Shown here: positions 4,298-64,000 of the stretch, piece by piece
Position numbering within the stretch: the first letter of the stretch is position 1
How the letters are laid out: each line of letters opens with the position of its first letter
Assembly (NCBI RefSeq): GCF_001677475.2
Contig: NZ_CP015229.1
DNA from: Escherichia coli
GTDB taxonomy: Bacteria > Pseudomonadota > Gammaproteobacteria > Enterobacterales > Enterobacteriaceae
Length of the DNA: 64,000 bases
Direction: 5' to 3' (one strand)
Notes under the pieces: generated by a model
What the model was told of the DNA's origin: nothing
The model's input: the letters and a program-made list of their open reading frames with translations, nothing else
Database searches by the model: none
Made by a program: the position numbers and the translations under genes

Positions 4298-5290
4298 ATG
4301 CAGAGCGATAAAGTGCTCAATTTGCCGGCAGGCTACTTTGGTATTGTGTTGGGGACGATAGGGATGGGATTTGCCTGGCGCTATGCCAGCCAGGTTTGGC
4401 AGGTCAGCCACTGGTTAGGGGATGGGCTGGTGATTCTGGCGATGATCATCTGGGGATTATTAACTAGCGCATTTATTACCCGACTCATACGCTTTCCGCA
4501 TAGCGTGCTGGCAGAAGTGCGCCATCCAGTGATGAGCAGTTTTGTGAGTTTGTTTCCGGCAACGACGATGCTGGTGGCGATTGGTTTTGTTCCGTGGTTT
4601 CGCCCACTGGCGGTGTGCCTGTTCAGTTTTGGTGTCGTGGTTCAGTTGGCTTATGCCGCCTGGCAAACTGCGGGATTATGGCGCGGATCTCACCCTGAAG
4701 AAGCTACCACGCCTGGACTGTATCTGCCGACAGTTGCCAACAACTTTATCAGCGCAATGGCCTGTGGTGCGTTGGGCTACACCGACGCCGGTCTGGTGTT
4801 TTTAGGCGCAGGCGTTTTCTCATGGCTAAGCCTTGAACCGGTGATCTTGCAGCGTCTGCGCAGTTCGGGAGAATTACCCACGGCACTGCGGACATCACTC
4901 GGCATTCAGCTCGCTCCTGCGCTGGTGGCCTGTAGTGCCTGGCTGAGCGTCAACGGCGGCGAGGGTGACACGCTGGCGAAAATGCTTTTCGGTTATGGAC
5001 TGCTGCAACTGCTGTTTATGCTACGTCTGATGCCATGGTATCTCTCCCAGCCATTTAATGCTTCATTCTGGAGTTTCTCGTTCGGCGTATCTGCACTGGC
5101 AACCACCGGTTTGCATCTGGGGAGTGGCAGCGATAATGGATTTTTCCATACGCTGGCGGTGCCGCTGTTTATCTTTACCAATTTTATTATTGCAATACTG
5201 CTCATCCGTACTTTTGCGCTTCTGATGCAGGGAAAATTGTTAGTCAGAACCGAGCGCGCCGTTTTAATGAAAGCAGAGGACAAAGAATGA
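4298..5290 (+). CDS. tehA: Tellurite resistance protein TehA (TDT family transporter)
   Basis: 330 aa polytopic membrane protein from ATG 4298 ([15 protein letters not shown]...); the track ORF has a 36-codon N-terminal extension judged non-coding. Confidence 0.92.
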
Positions 5291-6182: not shown

Positions 6183-6851
6183 ATGCGTACCACATCATTT
6201 GCGAAAGTTGCAGCTTTATGCGGCTTGTTGGCTCTGTCTGGTTGTGCCTCTAAAATCACCCAGCCAGATAAATATTCTGGTTTTTTAAACAATTACTCTG
6301 ATTTAAAAGAAACAACCTCAGCAACAGGTAAACCTGTTTTACGTTGGGTAGACCCGAGTTTTGATCAAAGCAAATATGACAGCATTGTCTGGAACCCAAT
6401 CACTTATTATCCGGTACCAAAACCTTCTACCCAGGTAGGGCAGAAAGTTCTGGATAAAATTTTGAACTATACAAACACCGAAATGAAAGAAGCGATAGCG
6501 CAGCGTAAACCACTGGTTACCACCGCTGGGCCGCGTAGTCTGATTTTCCGTGGGGCCATTACCGGTGTAGATACCAGCAAAGAAGGGCTGCAATTCTATG
6601 AAGTGGTTCCTGTTGCATTAGTGGTTGCAGGGACGCAAATGGCTACAGGCCACCGTACCATGGATACTCGCCTCTATTTTGAAGGTGAACTGATTGATGC
6701 AGCGACGAATAAACCGGTTATCAAAGTCGTTCGTCAGGGCGAAGGTAAAGACCTGAATAACGAAAGTACGCCAATGGCTTTCGAAAATATTAAACAAGTT
6801 ATTGATGACATGGCGACCGATGCCACCATGTTTGACGTTAACAAAAAGTAG
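6183..6851 (+). CDS. ydcL: Lipoprotein YdcL
   Basis: 222 aa; lipoprotein signal peptide with lipobox LSGC. Confidence 0.85.
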   Translation: MRTTSFAKVAALCGLLALSGCASKITQPDKYSGFLNNYSDLKETTSATGKPVLRWVDPSFDQSKYDSIVWNPITYYPVPKPSTQVGQKVLDKILNYTNTEMKEAIAQRKPLVTTAGPRSLIFRGAITGVDTSKEGLQFYEVVPVALVVAGTQMATGHRTMDTRLYFEGELIDAATNKPVIKVVRQGEGKDLNNESTPMAFENIKQVIDDMATDATMFDVNKK

Positions 6852-6885: not shown

Positions 6886-8058
6886 TTATCGGTTTCTGTC
6901 AGCGATTAAATTCAACACCACGTAACAAACGCCTCCGGCAATTAAACCCCAAAACGCAGAACCAATCCCGACCAGTGTCAATCCACTTGCCGTTACCAGA
7001 AATGCCACCACCGCCGCGTCGCGCTCACGCTCATTATGCAGCGCCTGATACAAACTGCCGCCAATGGTACTTAACAGCGCCAGACCTGCCAGCATCTGGA
7101 TCCAACTTACGGGCAGGGCAGCCATCATCCCGGTAATGGCACTACCAAACAGACCTGCGAGCAAATAGAAAATGCCGGCAACGGCAGCTGCCAGCCAACG
7201 TTGATCTTTATCCGGATGCGCTTCCGGGCTTTGGCAAATAGCCGCGGTGATTGCCGCAATACCGACGGAATAAACGCCGAAAGGGGAAAAAACCAGTGCC
7301 AGCAATCCAGTAAATACAATTAATGGCGAAACAGGAGCTGAATATCCGGCTGCTTTCATTGCTGCGATACCCGGTGCGTTTTGCGATGCCATCGTCACCA
7401 GAAAAAGGGGGAGTGCAACGCTCAGGCTGTGAGCAAACGAAAAATCAGGGGTAATATAAGTGGGGAGAACGGGTTTAAAGACAATATCAGTTGTGACAAC
7501 GTCACCTTGCGCGATAACGATCACGATCCCAATAATCATCGCGGCAATTACCGCATAGCGCGGCGCAACGGCCCTGGTTGCCAGCCATACCAGCAACATA
7601 CTGCCACACAACGTAAATTGACCATCCAGACTGGCAAACGCCTGTAAACCAAAGCGTAATAAAATCCCGGCAAGCATTGCCGCCGCAAGCGAGTGTGGAA
7701 TAATGCGCATCAGACGAGCAAAGAGTCCCGTTATGCCGCAGAGGACTATTAACGCGTTGGTGACAATAAAAACGCCGATGGCTTCGTTAAGTGTTAGTCC
7801 CTGCAATCCGGTGACCAACAAAGCCGCGCCAGGCGTTGACCATGCGGTGAGAACAGGTACGCGATACCATAATGTCAGAGTCAGCGTACTGACGCCCATT
7901 GCCAGCCCCAGCGCCGTCATCCAGCCAGAGATTTGTGCAGTGGTGGCTCCGGCGACAATCGCTGCTTGCCAGATTATTGCCGCTGAACTGGCGTAGCCAA
8001 TTAATACCGCCAGAAACCCCGCCAGTAGCGTGGGTGGAGGAATAGAAAACAGACGCAT
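6886..8058 (-). CDS. ydcO: BenE-family inner membrane transporter YdcO
   Basis: 390 aa from ATG (complement of 8056-8058), N-terminus MRLFSIPPPTLLAGF; the 477-aa track ORF includes an upstream extension. Confidence 0.85.
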   Translation of the reverse strand: MRLFSIPPPTLLAGFLAVLIGYASSAAIIWQAAIVAGATTAQISGWMTALGLAMGVSTLTLTLWYRVPVLTAWSTPGAALLVTGLQGLTLNEAIGVFIVTNALIVLCGITGLFARLMRIIPHSLAAAMLAGILLRFGLQAFASLDGQFTLCGSMLLVWLATRAVAPRYAVIAAMIIGIVIVIAQGDVVTTDIVFKPVLPTYITPDFSFAHSLSVALPLFLVTMASQNAPGIAAMKAAGYSAPVSPLIVFTGLLALVFSPFGVYSVGIAAITAAICQSPEAHPDKDQRWLAAAVAGIFYLLAGLFGSAITGMMAALPVSWIQMLAGLALLSTIGGSLYQALHNERERDAAVVAFLVTASGLTLVGIGSAFWGLIAGGVCYVVLNLIADRNR

Positions 8059-25031: not shown

Positions 25032-25271
25032 GAAAAAAGCCAGGTTAAGAATGGGAAAACACCGTCATGGTAATAAAATTGTAAATTTATGGAAAACGAA
25101 ACGGCACGATACGTTAAGTAATTGAGAAAATTGTAGTCGTAACGGCAAGAAATGCTCCACATTTGAGAAAATAATGATTACCATTCCCATTTATAACAAG
25201 AGCGTAACGATGATTACGCTTAGCGAAGCATTGTGAAGCAGCAAAAATATCGGTCATCAAAGGGAGTCGTC

Positions 25272-26333
25272 ATGCATTTACGTCATCTGTTTTCATCGCG
25301 CCTGCGTGGTTCATTACTGTTAGGTTCATTGCTTGTTGCTTCATCATTCAGTACGCAGGCCGCAGAAGAAATGCTGCGTAAAGCGGTAGGTAAAGGTGCC
25401 TACGAAATGGCTTATAGCCAGCAAGAAAACGCGCTGTGGCTCGCCACTTCGCAAAGCCGCAAACTGGATAAAGGCGGCGTGGTTTATCGTCTTGATCCGG
25501 TTACTCTGGAAGTGACCCAGGCGATCCATAACGATCTCAAGCCGTTTGGTGCCACCATCAATAACACGACTCAGACGTTGTGGTTTGGTAACACCGTAAA
25601 CAGCGCGGTCACGGCGATAGATGCCAAAACTGGCGAGGTGAAAGGCCGTCTGGTGCTGGATGATCGTAAGCGCACGGAAGAGGTGCGCCCGCTGCAACCG
25701 CGTGAGCTGGTGGCAGACGATGCCACGAACACCGTTTACATCAGTGGTATTGGTAAAGAGAGCGTGATTTGGGTCGTTGATGGCGAGAATATCAAACTGA
25801 AAACCGCCATCCAGAATACCGGTAAAATGAGTACCGGTCTGGCGCTGGATAGCAAAGGCAAACGTCTTTACACCACTAACGCTGACGGCGAATTGATTAC
25901 CATCGACAGCGCCGACAATAAAATCCTCAGCCGTAAAAAGCTGCTGGATGACGGCAAAGAGCACTTCTTTATCAACATCAGCCTTGATACGGCCAATCAG
26001 CGTGCATTTATCACCGATTCTAAAGCGGCAGAAGTGTTAGTGGTCGATACCCGTAATGGCAATATTCTGGCGAAGGTTGCGGCACCGGAATCACTGGCTG
26101 TGCTGTTTAACCCAGCACGTAATGAAGCCTACGTAACGCATCGTCAGGCAGGTAAAGTCAGTGTGATTGACGCGAAAAGCTATAAAGTGGTGAAAACGTT
26201 CGATACGCCGACTCATCCGAACAGCCTGGCGCTGTCTGCCGATGGTAAAACGCTGTATGTCAGTGTGAAACAAAAATCCACTAAACAGCAGGAAGCAACC
26301 CAGCCGGATGATGTGATTCGTATTACGCTGTAA
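25272..26333 (+). CDS. yncE: Periplasmic beta-propeller protein YncE
   Basis: 353 aa from ATG 25272 with AGGGAG Shine-Dalgarno; signal peptide. Confidence 0.88.
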   Translation: MHLRHLFSSRLRGSLLLGSLLVASSFSTQAAEEMLRKAVGKGAYEMAYSQQENALWLATSQSRKLDKGGVVYRLDPVTLEVTQAIHNDLKPFGATINNTTQTLWFGNTVNSAVTAIDAKTGEVKGRLVLDDRKRTEEVRPLQPRELVADDATNTVYISGIGKESVIWVVDGENIKLKTAIQNTGKMSTGLALDSKGKRLYTTNADGELITIDSADNKILSRKKLLDDGKEHFFINISLDTANQRAFITDSKAAEVLVVDTRNGNILAKVAAPESLAVLFNPARNEAYVTHRQAGKVSVIDAKSYKVVKTFDTPTHPNSLALSADGKTLYVSVKQKSTKQQEATQPDDVIRITL

Positions 26334-26445: not shown

Positions 26446-27945
26446 TTAACTCGCCGTTTCAGGTTTAAACACAATTTCCTGTTTTTCTTCATCTTCCTCG
26501 ACGACTGGCGCAGTGCTGTGAATTTCAGCAACGCGTTTGCGCACACCAAACCAGCCTATAACCAGCAGAATACCGATAATCGGCAGCGCCGCGATGGTAT
26601 AAGTCCCGTTCGGGTAATCGAATGCCATCAGCACCAGGACACTCAGTAAAAACAGTAATGTCAGCCAGGAAGTGAAGGGCGCGCCAGGCAGTTTAAAACT
26701 GACATCCGCTGCTTTGCCTTCTTTAATCGCTTTACGCAGGCGCATCTGGCACACGATGATAAACGCCCATGAAGCGATGATTCCCAGCGACGCGAAGTTC
26801 AACACAATCTCAAATACGCGCGACGGCACCAGATAGTTGAGGAATACGCCGACGACATAAACGACCAGTGTCGCCAGAATCCCGGCATACGGCACATGCT
26901 GACGGCTCATTTTCGCCATAAAACTCGGTGCGGAACCGCCCATCGCCATCGAGCGTAGAATACGTCCGGTGCAGTACAGACCTGAGTTCAGGCTGGAGAG
27001 GGCAGCGGTCAGCACCACAATGTTCATAATGCTGCCGATGTACGGCACACCCAGTTTAGAGAAAAACGTCACGAACGGACTTTGCCCAGCCTGATACGCG
27101 CTCCACGGCAATAACATAACCAGCAACACCACGGAGCCGACGTAAAACAGGCCAATACGCCAAATCACACTGTTAATCGCTTTAGGCACCATGGTCTGCG
27201 GATCTTTACATTCTCCGGCAGCTGTACCCACCATTTCAATGGAGGCAAAAGCAAACACTACGCCCTGAATCAACACCAGAGCAGGAAGCAAACCGTGGGG
27301 GAAGAAGCCGCCATTATCGGTGATTAAATGAAAGCCAGTGGTGTTGCCATCCAGCGGCTGACCACTACCGAGGAACACTGTACCCACGACCAAAAAGGTC
27401 ACAATGGCGAGCACTTTAATAAGCGCAAACCAGAACTCCATCTCCGCAAACCATTTCACACCAATCATATTCATGGTGCCAACGATGGTAAGTGCAGCGA
27501 GCGCAAAGACCCACTGCGGCACGCCGCCAAACGCCCCCCAGTAATGCATATACAGCGCTACAGCGGTGATATCGACAATCCCCGTCATCGCCCAGTTAAT
27601 GAAGTACATCCAGCCTGCAACGTAAGCGGCTTTCTCTCCTAAAAACTCACGGGCATAAGAGACAAAGCTGCCACTGGAAGGGCGATGTAACACCAGCTCA
27701 CCCAATGCACGCAGAATAAAAAACGAAAACAGGCCACATATTAAATAAACCAGTGCCAGCGCAGGACCCGCCATTTGCAGTCGGGCTCCTGCACCTAAAA
27801 ACAAGCCGGTGCCAATCGCGCCGCCAATGGCGATCATCTGCACCTGGCGATTGCCCATCGCTTTGTGATACCCCTCTTCGTGGGCATTAAGCCAGCGGCG
27901 TTTCGCGGCGTGTTGATCTGGAGTGTCGGTGTCGTGTTTACTCAT
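26446..27945 (-). CDS. ansP: L-asparagine permease (APC family)
   Basis: 499 aa from ATG (complement of 27943-27945); polytopic amino acid permease sequence. Confidence 0.92.
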   Translation of the reverse strand: MSKHDTDTPDQHAAKRRWLNAHEEGYHKAMGNRQVQMIAIGGAIGTGLFLGAGARLQMAGPALALVYLICGLFSFFILRALGELVLHRPSSGSFVSYAREFLGEKAAYVAGWMYFINWAMTGIVDITAVALYMHYWGAFGGVPQWVFALAALTIVGTMNMIGVKWFAEMEFWFALIKVLAIVTFLVVGTVFLGSGQPLDGNTTGFHLITDNGGFFPHGLLPALVLIQGVVFAFASIEMVGTAAGECKDPQTMVPKAINSVIWRIGLFYVGSVVLLVMLLPWSAYQAGQSPFVTFFSKLGVPYIGSIMNIVVLTAALSSLNSGLYCTGRILRSMAMGGSAPSFMAKMSRQHVPYAGILATLVVYVVGVFLNYLVPSRVFEIVLNFASLGIIASWAFIIVCQMRLRKAIKEGKAADVSFKLPGAPFTSWLTLLFLLSVLVLMAFDYPNGTYTIAALPIIGILLVIGWFGVRKRVAEIHSTAPVVEEDEEKQEIVFKPETAS

Positions 27946-28295
27946 TGCTCTCCCTGATTGCTTTAATGAAAAAGTCATATAAGTTGCCATGAACAATGTT
28001 TATTCATCCTGGCGATGACAAGATTCACCATTATTCTTTATGGGTATAACTGTCGGCGCAGAATCCTACCTTTTATCGTGTAACGATGCAAAATAATCCC
28101 GCTATAAATATGAGGGGATAAAGGCGGCCGGCAACAAAATAGCAACCTGATGAAATTTTGACGGAAACAACCACTATTGGTTTGATGATGCCCGACGGCA
28201 GTCCTACTCTTGCGCCACTCGTTCGTCGCTCTGAACGCCAGTGGTTGCAGTGGACACTGGCGTGGTTGGCTCATTGAATAGTGAGGTGCTAGCAC

Positions 28296-28472
28296 ATGAC
28301 GGGTTTCAGGGGTAATACACCAAATACCAATACAATTGCTGATTATATGAGCCAATTGCCGATGTTACAGAAAAGGCTAAAAAATGTAAGAGGCATGCAG
28401 GATGATAAACGCGCTATTGCCCAACAGGGGTTTCTGGAATTAGTCCTGTTCCATGGTCATTACAACTCTTAA
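28296..28472 (+). CDS. Hypothetical small protein (58 aa)
   Basis: ATG 28296 preceded by GAGGTG about 8 nt upstream; no recognisable family; not in ORF track (under 60 aa). Confidence 0.25.
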   Translation: MTGFRGNTPNTNTIADYMSQLPMLQKRLKNVRGMQDDKRAIAQQGFLELVLFHGHYNS

Positions 28473-28882
28473 AACATTACTTCAATATAATTAATGTGTA
28501 TATCATTCCCGATATTAATTTATGAAGTGAATTTGATATATTCCGAATTCTTAATTTACATTACTAATGTATGGGGCATAACGTTAAGATTGCTATGTGC
28601 AGATTAACATATCAGGGTGGGGCGGTAGCGTTTACAGATATTAATCAATTGATGAGAATTATGTTAACTGCGTAATCATTTGCATCGATTATTGATATTG
28701 AAGATAGATTAATAAAAATGCTGAGAATTAATGTTAAAAAATCATAACGGGAAACGTTGATAACTTGCTTTGATTTCATTTTCTATGAAGATGATGTCAT
28801 CAATACTGTATAAAGTGGAAATGTTGAACATCAAAGAGCGTTTGTGTTTTATCTGAAAGATATTATTTCCAGGGGGAAGGAT

Positions 28883-29013
28883 ATGTCATTAAGGAGAATG
28901 ACATCTGGTGAATTAACATTGGCCAGATCGATTTTTGAGAATACAATTGATTATAGCAAGGTATGGATCCACAATGAAAAATATTTGCCTGGTCAAGGGG
29001 AAAGAACAGCGAT
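28883..29013 (+). pseudogene. 5' portion of a host ORF interrupted by the prophage left end
   Basis: ATG 28883 with strong GGGGGAAGGA Shine-Dalgarno; the reading frame runs straight across the Mu-type end at 29014 into phage sequence, so the track ORF 28844..29083 is a host-phage fusion. Confidence 0.45.
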
Positions 29014-29040
29014 TGTATTGATTCACTTGAAGTACGAAAA
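29014..29040 (+). repeat. Prophage left terminal transposase-binding site (L1-like)
   Basis: Begins with 5'-TG; sequence matches the recalled Mu attL terminus. Confidence 0.75.
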
Positions 29041-29352
29041 AAACCGGGAGGACATTGGATTATTCGGGATTTGGCGGGATTAGATTTAGTGGGGCTTGCA
29101 AGCCTGTAGGACAGATTTTAGCCGTTACATCTTGAAACGCGAAAGATTGTTGGAAACAGCTTTTGATTCATTAAAGACACGAAAAGCAATTACTTCACGC
29201 ATCATTTCAAGTACAGCTTCAAAAATGCTTCAAAAACGGTAACAACCAGGCTTTCGGCAAGTGATGTGTGTCAAAAACAATCATCACTGTTTGGGTATCT
29301 TACATATGTAATTACCTAGAGTGAAGTTTATGTCTTAGCTATTACCTGGTTG

Positions 29353-29877
29353 TTATACAGCTTTCTTTACATCGTTTTCTCTTACAGGGAAATTATGTTC
29401 TTTGCCTTCATACTGAGACAAAATCTCTCTCACTTTTTCAGGTGGTAATGCCTGAAGAGTTTGCAGGGTTTTCTGTTGATCCACAGTAATCCCTAATGCC
29501 TCTAATGCCTTATCTTTACTGACAATTGTAGGCATAAGTCCTTTAATCCCTGCTACACGAATGATCTCCACAGCTGCGGCCTGCTCATCTGGTGTTAAGA
29601 AGCTCATTGCATAAATTAGCCTCTCATCAACTGTATGGGCGATTGATGTATGCACTGGTTTATCAGAAAGTGAGGCTCCTTTAATGGCCCTACGTGTTTC
29701 TTCTGGCAGACTGTTGATGTGATACTCATAAGCGACACCTTTCCCACCGTGACGCTGACGTTTTACCCAATCTTCCGCCACAGCTTTCCTGGTAATGTTA
29801 GTCGCCAACTTTGGTACACCAGGCATCCCTTCCAGCTCTTTCGCATTAAACCATTCTTTGATTTCAAAAGACATCAT
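29353..29877 (-). CDS. c: Transposable-phage repressor (Mu c / D108 repressor family)
   Basis: 174 aa, divergent from ner-A-B; N-terminal about 60 aa are roughly 50 percent identical to the N-terminus of the adjacent transposase. Confidence 0.8.
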   Translation of the reverse strand: MMSFEIKEWFNAKELEGMPGVPKLATNITRKAVAEDWVKRQRHGGKGVAYEYHINSLPEETRRAIKGASLSDKPVHTSIAHTVDERLIYAMSFLTPDEQAAAVEIIRVAGIKGLMPTIVSKDKALEALGITVDQQKTLQTLQALPPEKVREILSQYEGKEHNFPVRENDVKKAV

Positions 29878-30062
29878 TTAAAATCCTAGCGATTTCAATA
29901 GAGACAAAATAAATTCATATAAAAATCATGCCGTTATATGAAATCATGGTAAATACTTTCAAATCTCTATTGATTTGAAAATGATTCCACACTACATTGC
30001 ACGATATGCCGTGAGCTACTTTATAGCGTAGCTCACGGGGGAATCTGAAAGGATTACATGAA
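29878..30062. promoter_or_regulatory. Early operator/promoter region between divergent c and ner
   Basis: AT-rich 185-bp divergent intergenic region with several inverted repeats (for example TCAAAT..ATTTGA at about 29958-29978). Confidence 0.6.
30009..30038. promoter_or_regulatory. Perfect inverted repeat CCGTGAGCTAC-N8-GTAGCTCACGG; candidate Ner operator
   Basis: 11-bp arms at 30009-30019 and 30028-30038 with AT-rich 8-bp spacer, 25 bp upstream of ner. Confidence 0.5.
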
Positions 30063-30284
30063 ATGCATATGAATAAAAGAACTAACCGCCAAGATTGGCA
30101 CAGAGCTGACATCGTTGCAGAGCTACGAAAACGCAATATGTCACTAGCTGAATTGGGAAGATCTAATCATCTTTCGTCTTCAACATTAAAAAATGCTTTG
30201 GATAAGAGATATCCGAAAGCGGAGAAAATCATTGCAGATGCACTGGGAATGACACCGCAAGATATTTGGCCGTCTCGATACTAG
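30063..30284 (+). CDS. ner: Ner-family DNA-binding protein (early-operon negative regulator)
   Basis: 73 aa; motifs [14 protein letters not shown] and IWPSRY shared with Mu Ner and E. coli Nlp. Confidence 0.85.
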
Positions 30285-30291
30285 GTGCGCT

Positions 30292-32280
30292 ATGAAAGAA
30301 TGGTATACAGCAAAAGAGTTGCTCGGTTTGGCAGGTTTACCAAAGCAAGCCACTAACATTACACGTAAGGCACAAAGAGAAGGCTGGGAGTTCAGGCAGG
30401 TTGCAGGGACTAAAGGTGTATCATTTGAATTCAATATCAAATCATTCCCTGTCGCATTACGTGCTGAAATTCTGTTGCAACAAGGGAGAATTGAAACAAG
30501 CCAGGGGTATTTTGAAATCGCCCGCCCCACGCTGGAAGCCCACGATTACGATCGCGGGGCACTGTGGAGCAAATGGGATAAAGCCAGCGATTCCCAGCGC
30601 AGACTTGCTGAAAAATGGTTGCCTGCAGTTCAGGCCGCAGACGAAATGCTGAACCAGGGGATTTCAACAAAAACGGCTTTTGCGACCGTTGCAGGACATT
30701 ACCAGGTCAGCGCATCCACTTTGCGAGACAAGTATTACCAGGTACAGAAGTTTGCGAAGCCTGACTGGGCGGCTGCACTTGTTGATGGACGTGGTGCATC
30801 TCGTCGCAATGTTCACAAAAGTGAATTTGACGAGGATGCCTGGCAGTTTCTGATTGCAGATTATCTGCGACCGGAAAAACCCGCCTTCCGCAAATGTTAT
30901 GAGCGTCTGGAACTGGCAGCCCGCGAGCATGGCTGGAGTATTCCCTCCCGTGCCACGGCCTTTCGCCGGATTCAGCAACTGGACGAGGCAATGGTTGTTG
31001 CCTGTCGTGAAGGTGAACATGCACTGATGCATCTGATACCGGCACAGCAGCGAACTGTGGAACACCTGGACGCCATGCAGTGGATCAACGGCGACGGTTA
31101 TCTGCATAACGTCTTTGTACGCTGGTTTAACGGTGATGTGATCCGCCCGAAAACATGGTTCTGGCAGGATGTGAAAACCCGAAAAATTCTGGGCTGGCGC
31201 TGCGATGTGAGCGAGAACATTGATTCAATTCGCCTCTCGTTCATGGATGTGGTGACACGCTACGGCATCCCGGAAGATTTTCACATCACCATTGATAACA
31301 CCCGTGGGGCAGCGAATAAATGGCTGACGGGGGGCGCGCCCAATCGTTACCGCTTTAAGGTGAAAGAGGACGATCCAAAGGGACTGTTTTTACTGATGGG
31401 CGCGAAAATGCACTGGACAAGCGTTGTTGCCGGTAAAGGCTGGGGCCAGGCAAAACCTGTTGAACGTGCTTTCGGTGTTGGTGGGCTTGAGGAATACGTT
31501 GATAAGCATCCGGCACTGGCTGGCGCATATACGGGGCCAAATCCGCAGGCAAAACCTGATAACTATGGCGACCGTGCTGTTGATGCAGAGCTGTTTCTGA
31601 AAACCCTTGCTGAAGGTGTGGCGATGTTCAATGCCAGAACAGGCCGTGAAACAGAAATGTGCGGGGGCAAACTCTCGTTTGATGATGTTTTCGAGCGTGA
31701 ATACGCCAGAACGATTGTGCGTAAGCCAACCGAAGAACAAAAACGGATGCTGTTACTGCCTGCCGAAGCGGTGAACGTTTCACGCAAAGGCGAGTTTACG
31801 CTTAAAGTTGGCGGCTCCCTTAAAGGCGCGAAAAACGTTTATTACAACATGGCGTTAATGAATGCAGGCGTGAAAAAAGTTGTGGTCAGGTTTGATCCGC
31901 AGCAGCTACACAGCACAGTTTATTGCTACACCCTGGACGGTCGGTTTATCTGTGAAGCGGAATGTCTGGCACCTGTTGCATTTAATGATGCTGCGGCAGG
32001 CCGTGAATATCGCCGCCGCCAGAAACAACTGAAATCTGCAACTAAAGCAGCCATTAAGGCGCAGAAACAAATGGACGCGCTGGAAGTTGCTGAACTGCTG
32101 CCGCAGATAGCCGAACCAGCAGCACCAGAATCAAGGGTTGTTGGTATTTTCCGGCCTGTGGGTAACACAGTACGGGTTAAATATCGCACCCCCGATGATA
32201 AATACGAACCCGCTCGTGATGAATATCTGAATCAGTCACTGGATATTCTGGAACAGAAAAGACGTAAAAAAGCCATTTAA
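30292..32280 (+). CDS. A: DDE transposase (MuA family)
   Basis: 662 aa; Mu-transposase-like sequence throughout; N-terminal domain shared with the repressor. Confidence 0.93.
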
Positions 32281-32318
32281 TTAACGTTTAAACAAAATTT
32301 AATTACGAGGTTATTTAG

Positions 32319-33278
32319 ATGAATATTTCCGATATTCGCGCAGGACTGCGCACGCTTGTAGACAATGGAGAAACCACGCTGACACGCATCGCCAGTGAAT
32401 CAGGCGTGGCCCTGAGCACAGTCAGTGGTTTTGTGAATGATAAATATAACGGCAACATGGAATCAGTCGGGCGCACACTGGAACGCTGGCTGGAAAACTA
32501 TCACCGCGCAGAAGAACTGCCGGAACCCCCGCGTTTTGTGGAAACTGCAACAGCCCGTCAAATCTGGACAAGTATGCGTTTTGCTAATCTGACCGGAACC
32601 ATTGCTGTTATCTGTGGCAATCCAGGAGTGGGTAAAAGCGAAGCAGCCCGTGAATTTTGTCGCACTAATAATAATGTCTGGATGATCACCATCGCGCCAT
32701 CCCGTGCCAGTACGCTGGAATGTCTGACTGAACTTGCCGAAGAGTTGGGAATGAATAATGCACCCTGTCGCAAAGGGCCGCTTTCCCGTAATCTGCGTCG
32801 CCGCCTGAAAGGGACGCAGGGACTGGTCATTGTTGACGAAGCTGATCACCTTGACACCGAAGCGCTGGAAGAGCTCCGTCTGTTACAGGAGTCCGCCTGT
32901 ATTGGTCTGGTTCTGATGGGGAATCACCGTGTTTATTCAAATATGACCGCTAATGGCGACAGAACAATTGAGTTTGCCCGTCTGTTTTCCCGTATTGCAA
33001 AGCGCACAGCAATTAATAAAACCAAAGAAGACGATGTAAACGCAATTGCGGATGCCTGGCAGATTACCGGGAAAAATGAACGGGAATTATTACAGCAGAT
33101 TGCACAAACGCCTGGTGCGCTCCGCATTATGAATCAAACGCTGCGCCTTGCTGTTATGAATGCCTTCGGTAAAGGCGAACGTGTTAATGAGGATTATCTG
33201 CGTGAGGCTTACAAAGAGTTAGACCAGGACGTTGATGTTTCGATGCTGCTGGGTGTGCAAGGGGATGCTGAATCATGA
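32319..33278 (+). CDS. B: Transposition ATPase / target DNA activator (MuB family)
   Basis: 319 aa; Walker A GNPGVGKS; immediately downstream of A. Confidence 0.9.
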
Positions 33279-33502
33279 TGTCACGGAATATCAAAATGGC
33301 AACGGAAGTAAAGAGCTGGTTACAGGAGCGCGGCAGCCACGTCAACGAATCCTGGCTGGGCGTGGCCCGCCCGGTGCTTGAAATCACCTGCCCACCACCG
33401 GAGCTTGTCAGGAATGCTGTCAGGATTATGGAGCGTAAATCAGGGGTTGCCCGTTCAGTCTGGACGGCCCGCCTTAATGGTTGCCAGATTATCTGGCGTT
33501 AA
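33275..33502 (+). CDS. Hypothetical early protein (positional analogue of Mu Kil)
   Basis: 75 aa; ATGA overlap with B stop; assignment by position only. Confidence 0.4.
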
Positions 33503-33534
33503 TAACGGCTTATTTATTTGTGAGGAATAACAAA

Positions 33535-33804
33535 ATGGCAAAAGTAATCTTTGAATTTAACCGCATGGAAGATGTTGAGTTTCAGAAAAAAGGAGGTTTC
33601 TTTGTAGGAATGAGTGTGCAACTGGAAGAACAGTCTCCTAAGGAGCAAACCGGACCGCATGACGTGATGGCAGTCATTATCAAGAGCATGGCTCCTGAAA
33701 TTATTGAAAAAGCAACCCAGGAGTTGTTGAAGTCAGCCAGAGAACTTGGGCTGGAAGCCGAAGGCGAGTTATTCCGGTATAACCCGGATGCAGCTAAATA
33801 TTAA
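33535..33804 (+). CDS. Hypothetical early protein
   Basis: 89 aa from ATG 33535 with GAGGAA Shine-Dalgarno. Confidence 0.5.
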   Translation: MAKVIFEFNRMEDVEFQKKGGFFVGMSVQLEEQSPKEQTGPHDVMAVIIKSMAPEIIEKATQELLKSARELGLEAEGELFRYNPDAAKY

Positions 33805-33824
33805 TTCGCAAAGGAACGCTGACA

Positions 33825-34244
33825 ATGAAAGCCAAAATCAGAAACGAAATTCAGGCATTAATTCGGATTAAAGAGCGTAATAGCAATGGTGGAGACTTGC
33901 GCGAATTTATTTGCGCGCGCGAAGTTGAGGGATATGGCGAAAAGACTTACCTGATTGCATTCGACCATTACAGCATTTGTGCGCGTTATTGCGGGGAGGC
34001 GGTATTCCGCGCCATTACGTTTGGCAATGCCTTCAATGTGGATTTATGGGAATACGTCATGGACCGCGAATACATCAGCGCGTCAGACCCGGACGCACGG
34101 GAGCAGTGGAAGAACATCTGGCGCGATTACCGGCAAATGGCGAAAGGCTGGACGCAGGGGACGTATTCTTCCCTTGCCCTGAAAGCGGTTCAGCTATCTG
34201 TGCGGCATATGCTGTCGGCACGATTCGAACTCCCGGTGCACTGA
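33825..34244 (+). CDS. Hypothetical early protein
   Basis: 139 aa; operon context. Confidence 0.55.
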   Translation: MKAKIRNEIQALIRIKERNSNGGDLREFICAREVEGYGEKTYLIAFDHYSICARYCGEAVFRAITFGNAFNVDLWEYVMDREYISASDPDAREQWKNIWRDYRQMAKGWTQGTYSSLALKAVQLSVRHMLSARFELPVH

Positions 34245-34260
34245 TAAGGAGGGCATCATC

Positions 34261-34548
34261 ATGATAATCCCTCGCAAAAGATGGTCACGTGAAGACCGGG
34301 AATTTATCGAAGCCAGTGTCGGGAAAATGACAGTTGAAGAAATGGCGAAAAAACTGAACGTTGCCACAAGCGCCCTGCGGGCACATGCCAGAAGGTACGG
34401 AATATCGTTGTGTGTATACAAAATCAGTGAGCACGACAAATATTTGTGTCGAGAACTTTATAAAGAAGGGGTGGCTATTCATGTCATTGCCCAAAAGATG
34501 GAATTAAGCAATCGGGCTGTATCCAGCGTTGTATACAGTGAATATTAA
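34261..34548 (+). CDS. Hypothetical early protein with HTH-like segments
   Basis: 95 aa; two helix-turn-helix-like stretches (MTVEEMAKKLNVATSALRAHARRYG and VAIHVIAQKMELSNRAVSSVVY). Confidence 0.5.
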   Translation: MIIPRKRWSREDREFIEASVGKMTVEEMAKKLNVATSALRAHARRYGISLCVYKISEHDKYLCRELYKEGVAIHVIAQKMELSNRAVSSVVYSEY

Positions 34549-34568
34549 TTAACAGGAGCTTTATTTAT

Positions 34569-35093
34569 ATGGCTAAACCAGCAAAACGAATCAGGAATGC
34601 CGCAGCAGCTTATGTTCCTCAATCCCGCGATGCCGTGGTGTGTGATATTCGCTGGATTGGTGACCTGCAACGCGAAGCGGTACGACTTGAAACGGAAATG
34701 AATGACGCTATTGCTGAAATTACGGAGAAATACGCCTCACGGATTGCGCCGCTTAAAACCCGTATTGAAACCCTTTCAAAAGGCGTTCAGGGGTGGTGTG
34801 AAGCGAACCGTGACGAACTGACGAACGGCGGCAAGGTGAAGACGGCCAACCTGGTAACCGGTGATGTGTCATGGCGTCAGCGCCCACCATCAGTAAGTAT
34901 TCGCGGTGTGGATGCGGTGATGGAAACGCTGGAGCGTCTTGGCCTGCAACGCTTTATTCGCACGAAACAGGAAATCAACAAGGAAGCGATTTTACTGGAA
35001 CCGAAAGCGGTCGCAGGTGTTGCCGGAATTACAGTTAAATCAGGCATTGAAGATTTTTCTATTATTCCGTTTGAACAGGAAGCCGGTATTTAA
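34569..35093 (+). CDS. gam: Host-nuclease inhibitor Gam (Mu Gam family)
   Basis: 174 aa, same length as Mu Gam and matching recalled sequence character. Confidence 0.88.
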   Translation: MAKPAKRIRNAAAAYVPQSRDAVVCDIRWIGDLQREAVRLETEMNDAIAEITEKYASRIAPLKTRIETLSKGVQGWCEANRDELTNGGKVKTANLVTGDVSWRQRPPSVSIRGVDAVMETLERLGLQRFIRTKQEINKEAILLEPKAVAGVAGITVKSGIEDFSIIPFEQEAGI

Positions 35094-35191
35094 TACCACC
35101 ACGAATATTTAATTAGTTCACTTTCTTTTAATTATGGCGCGATGCGTCAGGGGATTGCTCGCGCCTGAATCTGATATACGGGATATAAAAA

Positions 35192-35734
35192 ATGATTAAT
35201 ACAAAAGTTCTGAGCGGCGTCAGCACATTATTACAGGTTTACGGGCGTCTGACCTGCGGCGTACTGGCTGAAAAAATGAAGATGCCACCTTCCTCAATGG
35301 TGTATTTCCTGCGTGATGCGGTTGATGCCGGAGTTCTCACTGAATGCAACGGATTTTATGACGTTCCGCGCCCTCGTCCGACGCCGCCAGTAATACGAAA
35401 CGCAACAACGGAGCACCCCGATGTTGATGATGCTCAATGGTGCGCGTTCCGCCGCTCTTTGCCCTGGCTGGAAGGCAATGCCATTCCGGCACTGGCAAAA
35501 GAATTTGCGACAGGCGTACTGACCTGCGAGTCGGTTTACATCGTTGCTGAAGTGGATGACGATATGTGCAAACAGGGAATGCCCCGTTTTGTGATGGCTT
35601 ATATCGATATCCGGCTGGGTCGTTTTATTTGTGGCTCCAGTGGCTGGAATATCACCGACCACATCCTGCGCTATCTCATTCTTGATTATTCACCAGCTCC
35701 GGCAGCAACACAGGAAGTCAGTGAACATGATTAA
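35192..35734 (+). CDS. Hypothetical early protein
   Basis: 180 aa; no recognisable motif. Confidence 0.55.
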   Translation: MINTKVLSGVSTLLQVYGRLTCGVLAEKMKMPPSSMVYFLRDAVDAGVLTECNGFYDVPRPRPTPPVIRNATTEHPDVDDAQWCAFRRSLPWLEGNAIPALAKEFATGVLTCESVYIVAEVDDDMCKQGMPRFVMAYIDIRLGRFICGSSGWNITDHILRYLILDYSPAPAATQEVSEHD

Positions 35735-62961: not shown

Positions 62962-63147
62962 ATGGATGCTGTTCGTTGTAAAAACTGCAATAAATTGCTG
63001 TTTAAAGGAAGTTTTAAGCATATAGAAATCAAATGCCCTCGTTGTAAACGTTACATTGTCATGTCGAGTGCCCGGGAGCATCCCACGGAGCTGTATTGTG
63101 GGAAAAGAGAAGAAATCACGCATCCTTACAAAACCCTGCGTTATTGA
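62962..63147 (+). CDS. com: Com zinc-finger translational activator of mom
   Basis: 61 aa; CKNC...CPRC...C..H zinc-finger pattern as in Mu Com; overlaps the mom start. Confidence 0.8.
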
Positions 63148-63793
63148 GTATGAAGGCCGTATTGTCGGCTATGGTTCAAGGGAACTGCGCGTTGAAACCA
63201 TATCCTGCTGGCTGGCCCGCACAATCATTCAGACAAAGCACTATTCCCGCCGTTTTGTGAATAACTCCTGGTTGCATCTGGGGGTATTCAGCGGACGTGA
63301 TCTGGTTGGCGTTCTCCAGTGGGGATACGCCCTTAATCCCAACTCAGGGCGTCGGGTCGTGCTGGAAACGGATAACCGGGGCTATATGGAACTGAACCGC
63401 ATGTGGTTACACGACGACATGCCCCGCAACTCTGAATCACGGGCTATCAGCTACGCACTGAAAACCATCAGGTTACTGTATCCATCAGTGGAGTGGGTTC
63501 AGTCCTTTGCAGACGAACGCTGCGGACGTGCAGGTGTTGTGTATCAGGCATCTAATTTTGATTTTATTGGTAGCCATGAAAGCACGTTCTACGAGCTGGA
63601 CGGCGAGTGGTATCACGAGATAACGATGAACGCGATTAAGCGTGGAGGACAACGAGGCGAGTATTTGCGGGCTAATAAGGAGCGGGCGGTGGTACACAAA
63701 TTTAATCAGTATCGCTACATCAGATTCCTGAACAAGCGCGCAAAAAAGCGACTAAATACTAAGCTATTCAGGATTCAGCCATACCCGAAGTGA
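63098..63793 (+). CDS. mom: Mom DNA modification protein
   Basis: 231 aa if initiated at GTG 63098 (Mu Mom length) with GGAG 7 nt upstream; the track ORF starts at TTG 63056; overlaps com. Confidence 0.8.
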
Positions 63794-63999: not shown

Positions 64000-64000
64000 A

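Follow-up and report, generated by a model that had tools for sequence, protein, structure and literature searches.

The DNA considered here (the window) is a stretch of 64,000 nucleotides from Escherichia coli in which yncE (25233-26333, + strand) and ansP (26446-27945, - strand) are followed by an AT-rich segment and then by the early region of a Mu-type phage (c repressor, ner, transposase A). A preliminary description, made from the sequence before any database was searched, drew attention to the composition of ~28430-28850, and with good reason: its G+C content is 0.299 (29.9%) against a window mean of 0.521, and no other part of the 64 kb is as AT-rich. Of all segments of 421 nt in the window, just 0.08% reach the same AT content, and every one of them lies within 28430-28904. 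Between ansP and the prophage one encounters, in turn, the ansP upstream region, the remains of a yncG-like gene, the AT-rich leader and the first codons of a toxin gene. We are nearly certain of this structural description of the locus (relics, AT-rich leader, disrupted toxin gene). Taken as a whole, 28123-29013, with its yncG relics, its leader and its prophage-cut effector gene, is very probably the edge, on the ansP side, of an accessory type VI secretion (T6SS) island at the rhsE locus. What lies here is an ordinary accessory-island boundary, a piece of genome-island anatomy, rather than a new gene.

How such a boundary varies in the population can be followed across 5,426 complete E. coli genomes, which constitute the survey referred to throughout. 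The ansP upstream (promoter) region (27946-28122) is the sole part that is common to nearly all of them: a match to positions 1 to ~172 of the query is present in 5,405 of the 5,426, at 86-88% identity in genomes of the K-12 type. The window carries a diverged allele of this region. Identity to K-12 is ~98% within ansP, falls to 84% at 28000-28097 and stays at only ~84% over the final ~120 bp of the upstream region (28000-28122), which implies that an old haplotype boundary extends into the ansP promoter region and, in turn, that ansP regulation could differ between haplotypes.

Farther from ansP, the genomes fall into three classes. The first (~4,550 genomes, including K-12) shares just 27950 to ~28120 with the window, at 86-88% identity, and continues with its own yncG, yncH and a 5'-truncated rhsE. 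Comparison with the region downstream of ansP in K-12, which had been proposed as a check, recovers that short stretch together with a ~125-nt piece of the K-12 yncH-rhsE' spacer, to which we return below. The second class (~540 genomes) shares the segment up to 28617, at which point an ISAs1-family element next to yddH takes over; this class is an IS-associated deletion of the whole island. (At one such locus, L003 of class B, Eco-15, the junction at 6664-6808 corresponds to window position 28617 and is the flank of an ISAs1-family (ydcC/ISEc1) element, beyond which lie yddH and nhoA.) The third class, 229 of the 5,426, carries the whole segment and the island. The existence of these three classes identifies the segment as accessory DNA and not as core intergenic DNA, and the suggestion that this is a variable accessory locus is thus borne out. 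The converse case, which had also been set out, was that of core intergenic DNA conserved in all E. coli around an unconserved reading frame; the frame is indeed unconserved (see below), but the region is not core. A single chromosomal site is seen to maintain long-lived alternative haplotypes: an intact yncG-yncH pair with a gutted rhsE, a decayed yncG with a complete toxin island, and the IS-mediated loss of everything.

Relics of yncG and the 58-codon frame

The preliminary description found no yncG-like ORF at the place where K-12 has its glutathione transferase (GST) gene. An intact yncG is certainly absent, but tblastn with K-12 YncG brings two in-frame and collinear relics to light. YncG residues 61-101 match 28149-28271 (44% identity, E=2e-10) and residues 175-200, the C-terminus, match 28305-28382 (50% identity, E=9e-5), both in one reading frame and in the syntenic position beside ansP. 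Fragment 1 of this yncG pseudogene (28149-28277, + strand; YncG residues ~61-101) is 68.6% identical in DNA sequence to K-12 yncG and contains a 39-aa ORF (28158-28277, + strand, with a TTG start), which PGAP calls hypothetical and many other sources call a glutathione S-transferase. Fragment 2 (28305-28382) constitutes codons 4-29 of the 58-aa ORF that is discussed below. The yncG promoter, the start codon and the first 60 codons are missing, as are ~70 internal codons (residues ~102-174), and stop codons are present between the two fragments. Neither the 39-aa nor the 58-aa ORF matches the Pfam GST domain, and searches of both against Pfam and NCBIfam returned nothing meaningful. Homology to YncG in the absence of the N-terminal thioredoxin-like domain and of a complete C-terminal helical domain marks a pseudogene relic and not a member gene of the GST family. 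(A candidate relic of yncH in the window came down to a 6-residue match with E=0.48 and was rejected.)

Related species retain somewhat different portions of the same gene. The E. marmotae relic keeps 25 extra bases that read WLVANISLR, to be compared with WLVANVYPT in YncG, and the relic in E. whittamii is better preserved (61% identity over 44 aa, E=6e-12). Between E. coli and E. marmotae the relics are 74-77% identical, and the third-codon-position identity of the neighbouring yncE and ansP is 76-78%; for a cryptic clade the corresponding values are 85-88% and 90%. Relic identity thus equals third-position identity, as expected of a pseudogene that is free of selection, and the yncG relics evolve at the neutral rate. 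The history that we propose is one in which a yncG-like glutathione-transferase gene would have lost its promoter and its start, along with those first 60 and ~70 internal codons, and would then have drifted neutrally.

The 58-aa ORF (28296-28472, + strand) was singled out initially on account of its plausible ribosome-binding site, and the signals are as described: an ATG at 28296 with a GAGG Shine-Dalgarno sequence at 28283-28286, 9 nt upstream. Its reading frame is the matter in question, since beyond the yncG fragment it reads past the position of an old stop. In other E. coli the frame is closed by TAA at codon 17 (28344-28346) and again by TAG at codon 35 (28398-28400); the cryptic clade has TAG at both of these codons, Escherichia sp. 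E1V33 has TAG at codon 17 and more stops downstream, and a 138-bp deletion has removed most of the frame from E. marmotae. (The stop-carrying loci are L001, L002, L003, L008, L018 and L020.) The window lineage reads TAT and CAG at the two codons that are stops in its relatives. The TAT codon-17 context is found in none of the 5,426 complete genomes by a word-based search that targets the TAT allele only, so that TAT combined with a second nearby SNP would escape it. The exact 58-aa peptide occurs on 37+4 contigs, of which the six loci fetched (L010-L015) represent one clonal background with yncE and ansP 100% identical throughout. A search with the peptide, as had been recommended, yields no protein family and no database relatives outside that lineage. 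Because the frame is closed elsewhere, its being open here is a matter of recent chance or, at the most, of an event that is peculiar to this lineage and very young.

The lineage also displays a cluster of five substitutions of its own (28319, 28346, 28363, 28398 and 28429) within 111 bp, flanked by sequence that is 98.5-100% identical to that of other class-A genomes. The simplest reading of the cluster (28319-28429) is that it is a small recombination patch derived from an unsampled allele.

One may ask, nonetheless, whether a pseudogene fragment has been re-opened by two stop-to-sense changes and, equipped with its own Shine-Dalgarno sequence, now specifies a real small protein of this lineage. 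The spacing of GAGG and ATG is suitable, the frame is open in every lineage member (L010-L015), two of the five clustered substitutions are those that remove stop codons, and TAT looks derived, since two outgroups as well as other E. coli have a stop at codon 17. Conservation within the lineage carries no weight, however, the lineage being clonal, and the SNP cluster is explained equally well by a recombination patch. The peptide has neither family nor database relatives outside the lineage, it is made up of the end of a C-terminal GST domain and a continuation read from formerly non-coding DNA, and the relic from which it stems evolves neutrally. We consider a functional small protein to be extremely improbable. 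The 58-aa ORF is most likely the last relic of yncG with a read-through extension, and not a gene; the earlier hint to the contrary is not sustained, the frame being stop-closed or deleted in every other lineage examined. For purposes of annotation, the 39-aa ORF (GST or hypothetical) and the 58-aa ORF would both be better marked as yncG pseudogene relics.

A predicted effector gene interrupted by a prophage

The gene that the AT-rich segment precedes encodes a predicted T6SS effector, a zinc metallopeptidase resembling the C-terminal domain of VgrG2b, of which the window retains the first 43 codons and 2 nt (28883-29013, + strand). Its HExxH motif (residues 82-86) falls outside the window, and the assignment is made on a full-length allele (P0018; L014 6588-7118), which matches PDB 6H56 (6H56_A) over residues 4-138 with E=1.2e-18 and with its HEMMH aligned to HEMTH. 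A Pfam search that included DUF4157 gave no match to the effector at E<=1. In uninterrupted genomes the gene order is ansP, the 39-aa ORF, a gap, the 176-aa effector gene, a 118-aa gene, vgrG, a DcrB-like gene and a DUF6531/RHS gene. The VgrG protein is recognized by TIGR03361 (560 bits), the DUF6531/RHS protein has in addition a faint PAAR match, and the linkage holds in all uninterrupted loci. The 118-aa ORF overlaps the effector stop codon and its N-terminus (MKRFFLFFFLSGC) has a lipobox (LSGC). It scores 30.9 bits against NF045617, a model for T6SS immunity lipoproteins, which is below the cutoff of 43, and its product is a putative immunity lipoprotein for the effector. Free-standing "cargo" versions of the VgrG2b effector, followed by a small ORF, have been described in enterobacteria (Wood et al. 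2019, PMC6899460). Elsewhere, in strain Z1323CEC0015 (L018 5370-5901), the annotation records a frameshift in this effector gene, and the rhs gene of that locus is frameshifted too; these are independent inactivations of the island's toxins.

In the window, the effector gene is interrupted in codon 44 by a D108/Mu-type transposable prophage (29014-64000, + strand), the left end of which is at 29014 and the remainder of which runs off the window. The point of insertion is exact: base 1 of D108 corresponds to 29014, with 98.8% identity over the first 1.3 kb, and on the host side all E. coli matches end at 29013. A chimeric 66-aa ORF (28883-29083, + strand) results, in which 43 host codons are joined to 23 codons from the prophage left end. 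The prophage genes c, ner, A, B and kil are present, and the Pfam transposase and MuB families are found in the sibling locus L010. Homology to D108 extends over 29014-35706 (85-92%) and over 62972-63786, the com/mom region (89%); the central ~27 kb (35707-62971) has no megablast match to D108, which makes this a D108/Mu relative and not D108 itself. The prophage is a mosaic or diverged relative within the Muvirus group.

The target consensus of Mu is N-Y-S-R-N. The pentamer at the left flank, GCGAT (29009-29013), which is defined by comparing the junction with empty sites (L014, L015, L001 and L005), fits that consensus and we take it to be the 5-bp target. Neither the right end of the prophage nor the remaining part of the effector gene was found in the window, which places them, together with any second copy of the 5-bp target, beyond base 64000; on a model of simple insertion, GCGAT and then GACCCCAAACGGGG would follow the right end. 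The identical junction occurs in four draft assemblies of the same lineage (L010-L013) and in none of the 5,426 complete genomes. L014, from assembly GCA_037967675.1, and L015 have the same host allele and no prophage, with the gene intact at the site.

With the prophage inserted at 29013/29014, the leader would now drive at most the 66-aa chimeric ORF, reading on into the left end of the prophage. At least 35 kb would separate the leader from the catalytic part of the toxin gene, the putative immunity gene and the vgrG-rhs genes, leaving it orphaned from its operon. A Mu-type phage has, in other words, inactivated a predicted interbacterial toxin gene and parted the putative immunity gene from its leader. 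The ORF at 28883 would be better annotated as a prophage-disrupted T6SS metallopeptidase effector gene.

The AT-rich leader

The DNA between the end of the 58-aa frame and the effector gene (28473-28882, + strand; G+C 0.298) is taken to be the leader, and presumably the promoter and silencing region, of the effector-immunity unit and possibly of the vgrG-dcrB-rhs genes that complete the island. In the 229 uninterrupted genomes it runs directly into the 176-aa effector gene. Since ansP is divergent, gene order would place the promoter of the effector gene within 27946-28882. The original proposal of a promoter region is accordingly plausible as an inference: this is the sole DNA between ansP and the first gene of the island, and part of it is homologous to a spacer in K-12, that between yncH and rhsE', for which genomic SELEX has identified an RpoD-holoenzyme binding site that bears an H-NS mark, with transcription toward rhsE (Shimada et al. 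2014, PMC3946193). The K-12 hexamers proposed in that work (PMC3946193; L004 7715-7743) fall outside the ~125 nt that K-12 and the window have in common. The leader is AT-rich DNA upstream of horizontally acquired genes, as would suit a promoter region silenced by H-NS, with a G+C content of 0.298 versus 0.52 and a position in an accessory locus. The proposed role is that these ~410 bp would carry the promoter or promoters of the effector-immunity pair, and possibly of vgrG-dcrB-rhs, and would be a likely target of H-NS-type silencing. An AT-rich gap of 221 bp precedes vgrG, so that the vgrG-rhs genes may have a promoter of their own. Promoter activity, H-NS binding and operon structure are all matters that we infer.

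The search for a specific promoter is less rewarding. The leader contains nine sigma-70-like matches where 4.5 are expected (~2-fold enrichment), none of them conserved across species or among paralogous copies of the leader, and for that reason no promoter is assigned. No terminator-like site was found in the AT-rich stretch. In E. marmotae and in a cryptic clade the leader is ~90% identical to that of the window, and the third-position identity of the island genes is 85-93%; since the two agree, the leader as a whole shows no excess constraint that would point to purifying selection. At 28832/28833, shortly before the effector gene begins, both E. marmotae and the cryptic clade carry 27 bp (AAAGAGAACCCTATTTAATAAATAATA) that are missing from E. 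coli. Short AAAGAG/AAAGAA repeats flank this deletion of AAAGAGAACCCTATTTAATAAATAATA.

Might the AT-rich stretch, then, be a functionless, decayed yncG-yncH spacer, with the island genes expressed from elsewhere or not at all, and in any event orphaned by the prophage in this genome? Its overall conservation is what neutrality predicts for the island, the species differ by indels of 27 and 138 bp, a conserved sigma-70 promoter is not found, and ~540 genomes have lost everything past 28617. On the other hand, the effector gene needs a promoter and divergent ansP does not offer one, genomic SELEX shows binding of the homologous K-12 spacer by H-NS and by the RNA polymerase holoenzyme (PMC3946193), and a 5' module and core block of the leader (described below) are conserved across paralogous vgrG-rhs loci well above background. 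We therefore regard decay without function as unlikely. The reading towards which we lean in respect of function is that of an AT-rich and probably H-NS-silenced leader that carries the promoter of the effector-immunity unit.

The shared part of the leader is a module of ~145 nt (28487-28634, + strand) that recurs in other vgrG-rhs loci with 73-76% identity. One copy is in the K-12 yncH-rhsE' spacer (76%); another is in the cusS-vgrG spacer of strain RIVM_C019217 (73%), just upstream of vgrG-dcrB-rhs. The K-12 and cusS-side copies are collinear with each other over 437 nt (79.6%), to ~60 bp before vgrG, and from this it follows that K-12 retains, as its yncH-rhsE' spacer, the leader of a vgrG that has been deleted and that the rhsE' pseudogene arose through deletion from just upstream of vgrG into rhs. 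(The collinear stretches are L004 7483-7917 in K-12 and L017 4972-5394 on the cusS side, the K-12 spacer ending its correspondence ~60 bp before the would-be vgrG start.)

Within the module there is a G+C-rich block of ~50 nt (28583-28633) that is nearly invariant among haplotypes that are otherwise 68-80% identical. Its core 21-mer, TATCAGGGTGGGGCGGTAGCG (28610-28630), does not vary among the ansP-side copies of Escherichia, and K-12 has it unchanged; the equivalents of the block in the paralogous vgrG-rhs leaders, where the surrounding sequence is only 73-80% identical, are at L004 7606-7626 and L017 ~5070-5115. Close by is a palindrome, GAATTT-N3-AAATTC (~28530-28544 in the window; L004 ~7524-7538), that has no mismatch in K-12 or on the cusS side (L017) and keeps 5/6 of its arm positions in the window. 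A transcription factor could bind there, and the K-12 version may bear a loose resemblance to an RcsAB-box half-site.

A block that stays constant while its surroundings diverge might also signify that the AT-rich stretch specifies a product of its own, either a small RNA or a 34-aa protein, for which an ORF (28571-28675) lies over the block. The window, K-12 and the cusS-side copy do each have a short ORF with the core AMCR..YQGGAVA over the block. As a conserved gene, however, the 34-aa ORF was tried and rejected: the frame has two in-frame stops in E. marmotae and is shorter in the cryptic clade, its start codons vary (ATG, GTG, TTG), and the cusS-side copy has a 1-nt indel in the block. 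The case for an RNA fares no better, in that predicted folding does not improve on that of shuffled sequences on either strand (z of -0.18 and -1.24), no Rfam family scores above its gathering threshold and there is no terminator-like site. (A permissive Rfam scan of the AT-rich stretch produced only snoR27, at 30.9 bits with a cutoff of 41, and snoMe18S-Um1356, at 24.2 with a cutoff of 50; these are sub-threshold matches to eukaryotic families, attributed to chance in AT-rich DNA and discarded.) A product encoded by the stretch itself is very unlikely.

The constancy of the block may also be considered in terms of regulation. At least two vgrG-rhs loci of Escherichia, unlinked to each other, have both the block and the palindrome in their leaders, and so has the K-12 rhsE' remnant. 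A degenerate scan for the core in species-representative genomes finds it in only two other Escherichia species; with the core confined to the genus, nothing speaks for an element of wide conservation. That block and palindrome together might form a dedicated cis-regulatory element, an operator or part of a 5'-UTR, through which accessory T6SS spike and toxin operons would be co-ordinated across the genus, is a speculative and rather doubtful proposition. The leader module nevertheless provides a modest lead on the control of accessory vgrG-rhs operons.

Comparison with known systems

The prophage finds its closest counterparts in D108 and Mu (Muvirus), with which it shares c, ner, A, B and kil and a left end that is identical from base 1; it departs from D108 in an early region that is only 85-92% identical and in the ~27 kb of its middle that megablast does not match.

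The host side is best seen against the K-12 arrangement, ansP-yncG-yncH-rhsE'. The relics occupy the same position next to ansP, and have the same orientation, as K-12 yncG (b1454, a GST-family gene), to which they correspond in two collinear in-frame stretches, and the ~125-nt piece of the yncH-rhsE' spacer is found at 28513-28634. They differ in being only 44-50% identical to it in amino acid sequence and 68-70% in nucleotide sequence, and in the lack of a detectable yncH relic. K-12, in turn, has kept neither the effector gene nor the putative immunity gene, and vgrG, dcrB and the 5' part of rhs are gone as well.

For the effector, the comparison is with the C-terminal metallopeptidase domain of Pseudomonas aeruginosa VgrG2b and its immunity protein PA0261 (PDB 6H56, PMC6899460). 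The gene at 28883 is homologous, and a small putative lipoprotein gene, vgrG, dcrB and a PAAR-like rhs gene lie downstream. The E. coli effector is a free-standing protein of 176 aa and not an extension of VgrG, and in the window it is truncated after codon 43.

Two kinds of regulatory spacer bear on the leader. In EHEC, the hcp3-vgrG3 intergenic region h3R holds a promoter and regulatory elements just upstream of vgrG, in a system that is repressed by H-NS (PMC13141884). Its G+C content is 53%, in contrast to the AT-rich leader of the window, and blastn against the Sakai cluster (E<=1e-3) detects no homology of the leader to h3R or to the T6SS bidirectional promoter; h3R is a conceptual precedent for a regulatory spacer upstream of vgrG. 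The AT-rich, H-NS-marked sigma-70 spacers of K-12 (yncH>rhsE and ybbP>rhsD; PMC3946193) are nearer to hand. With the first of these the leader has partial sequence homology, the published promoter hexamers being outside the shared part, and it is like both in its position in an rhs island and in its AT-richness.
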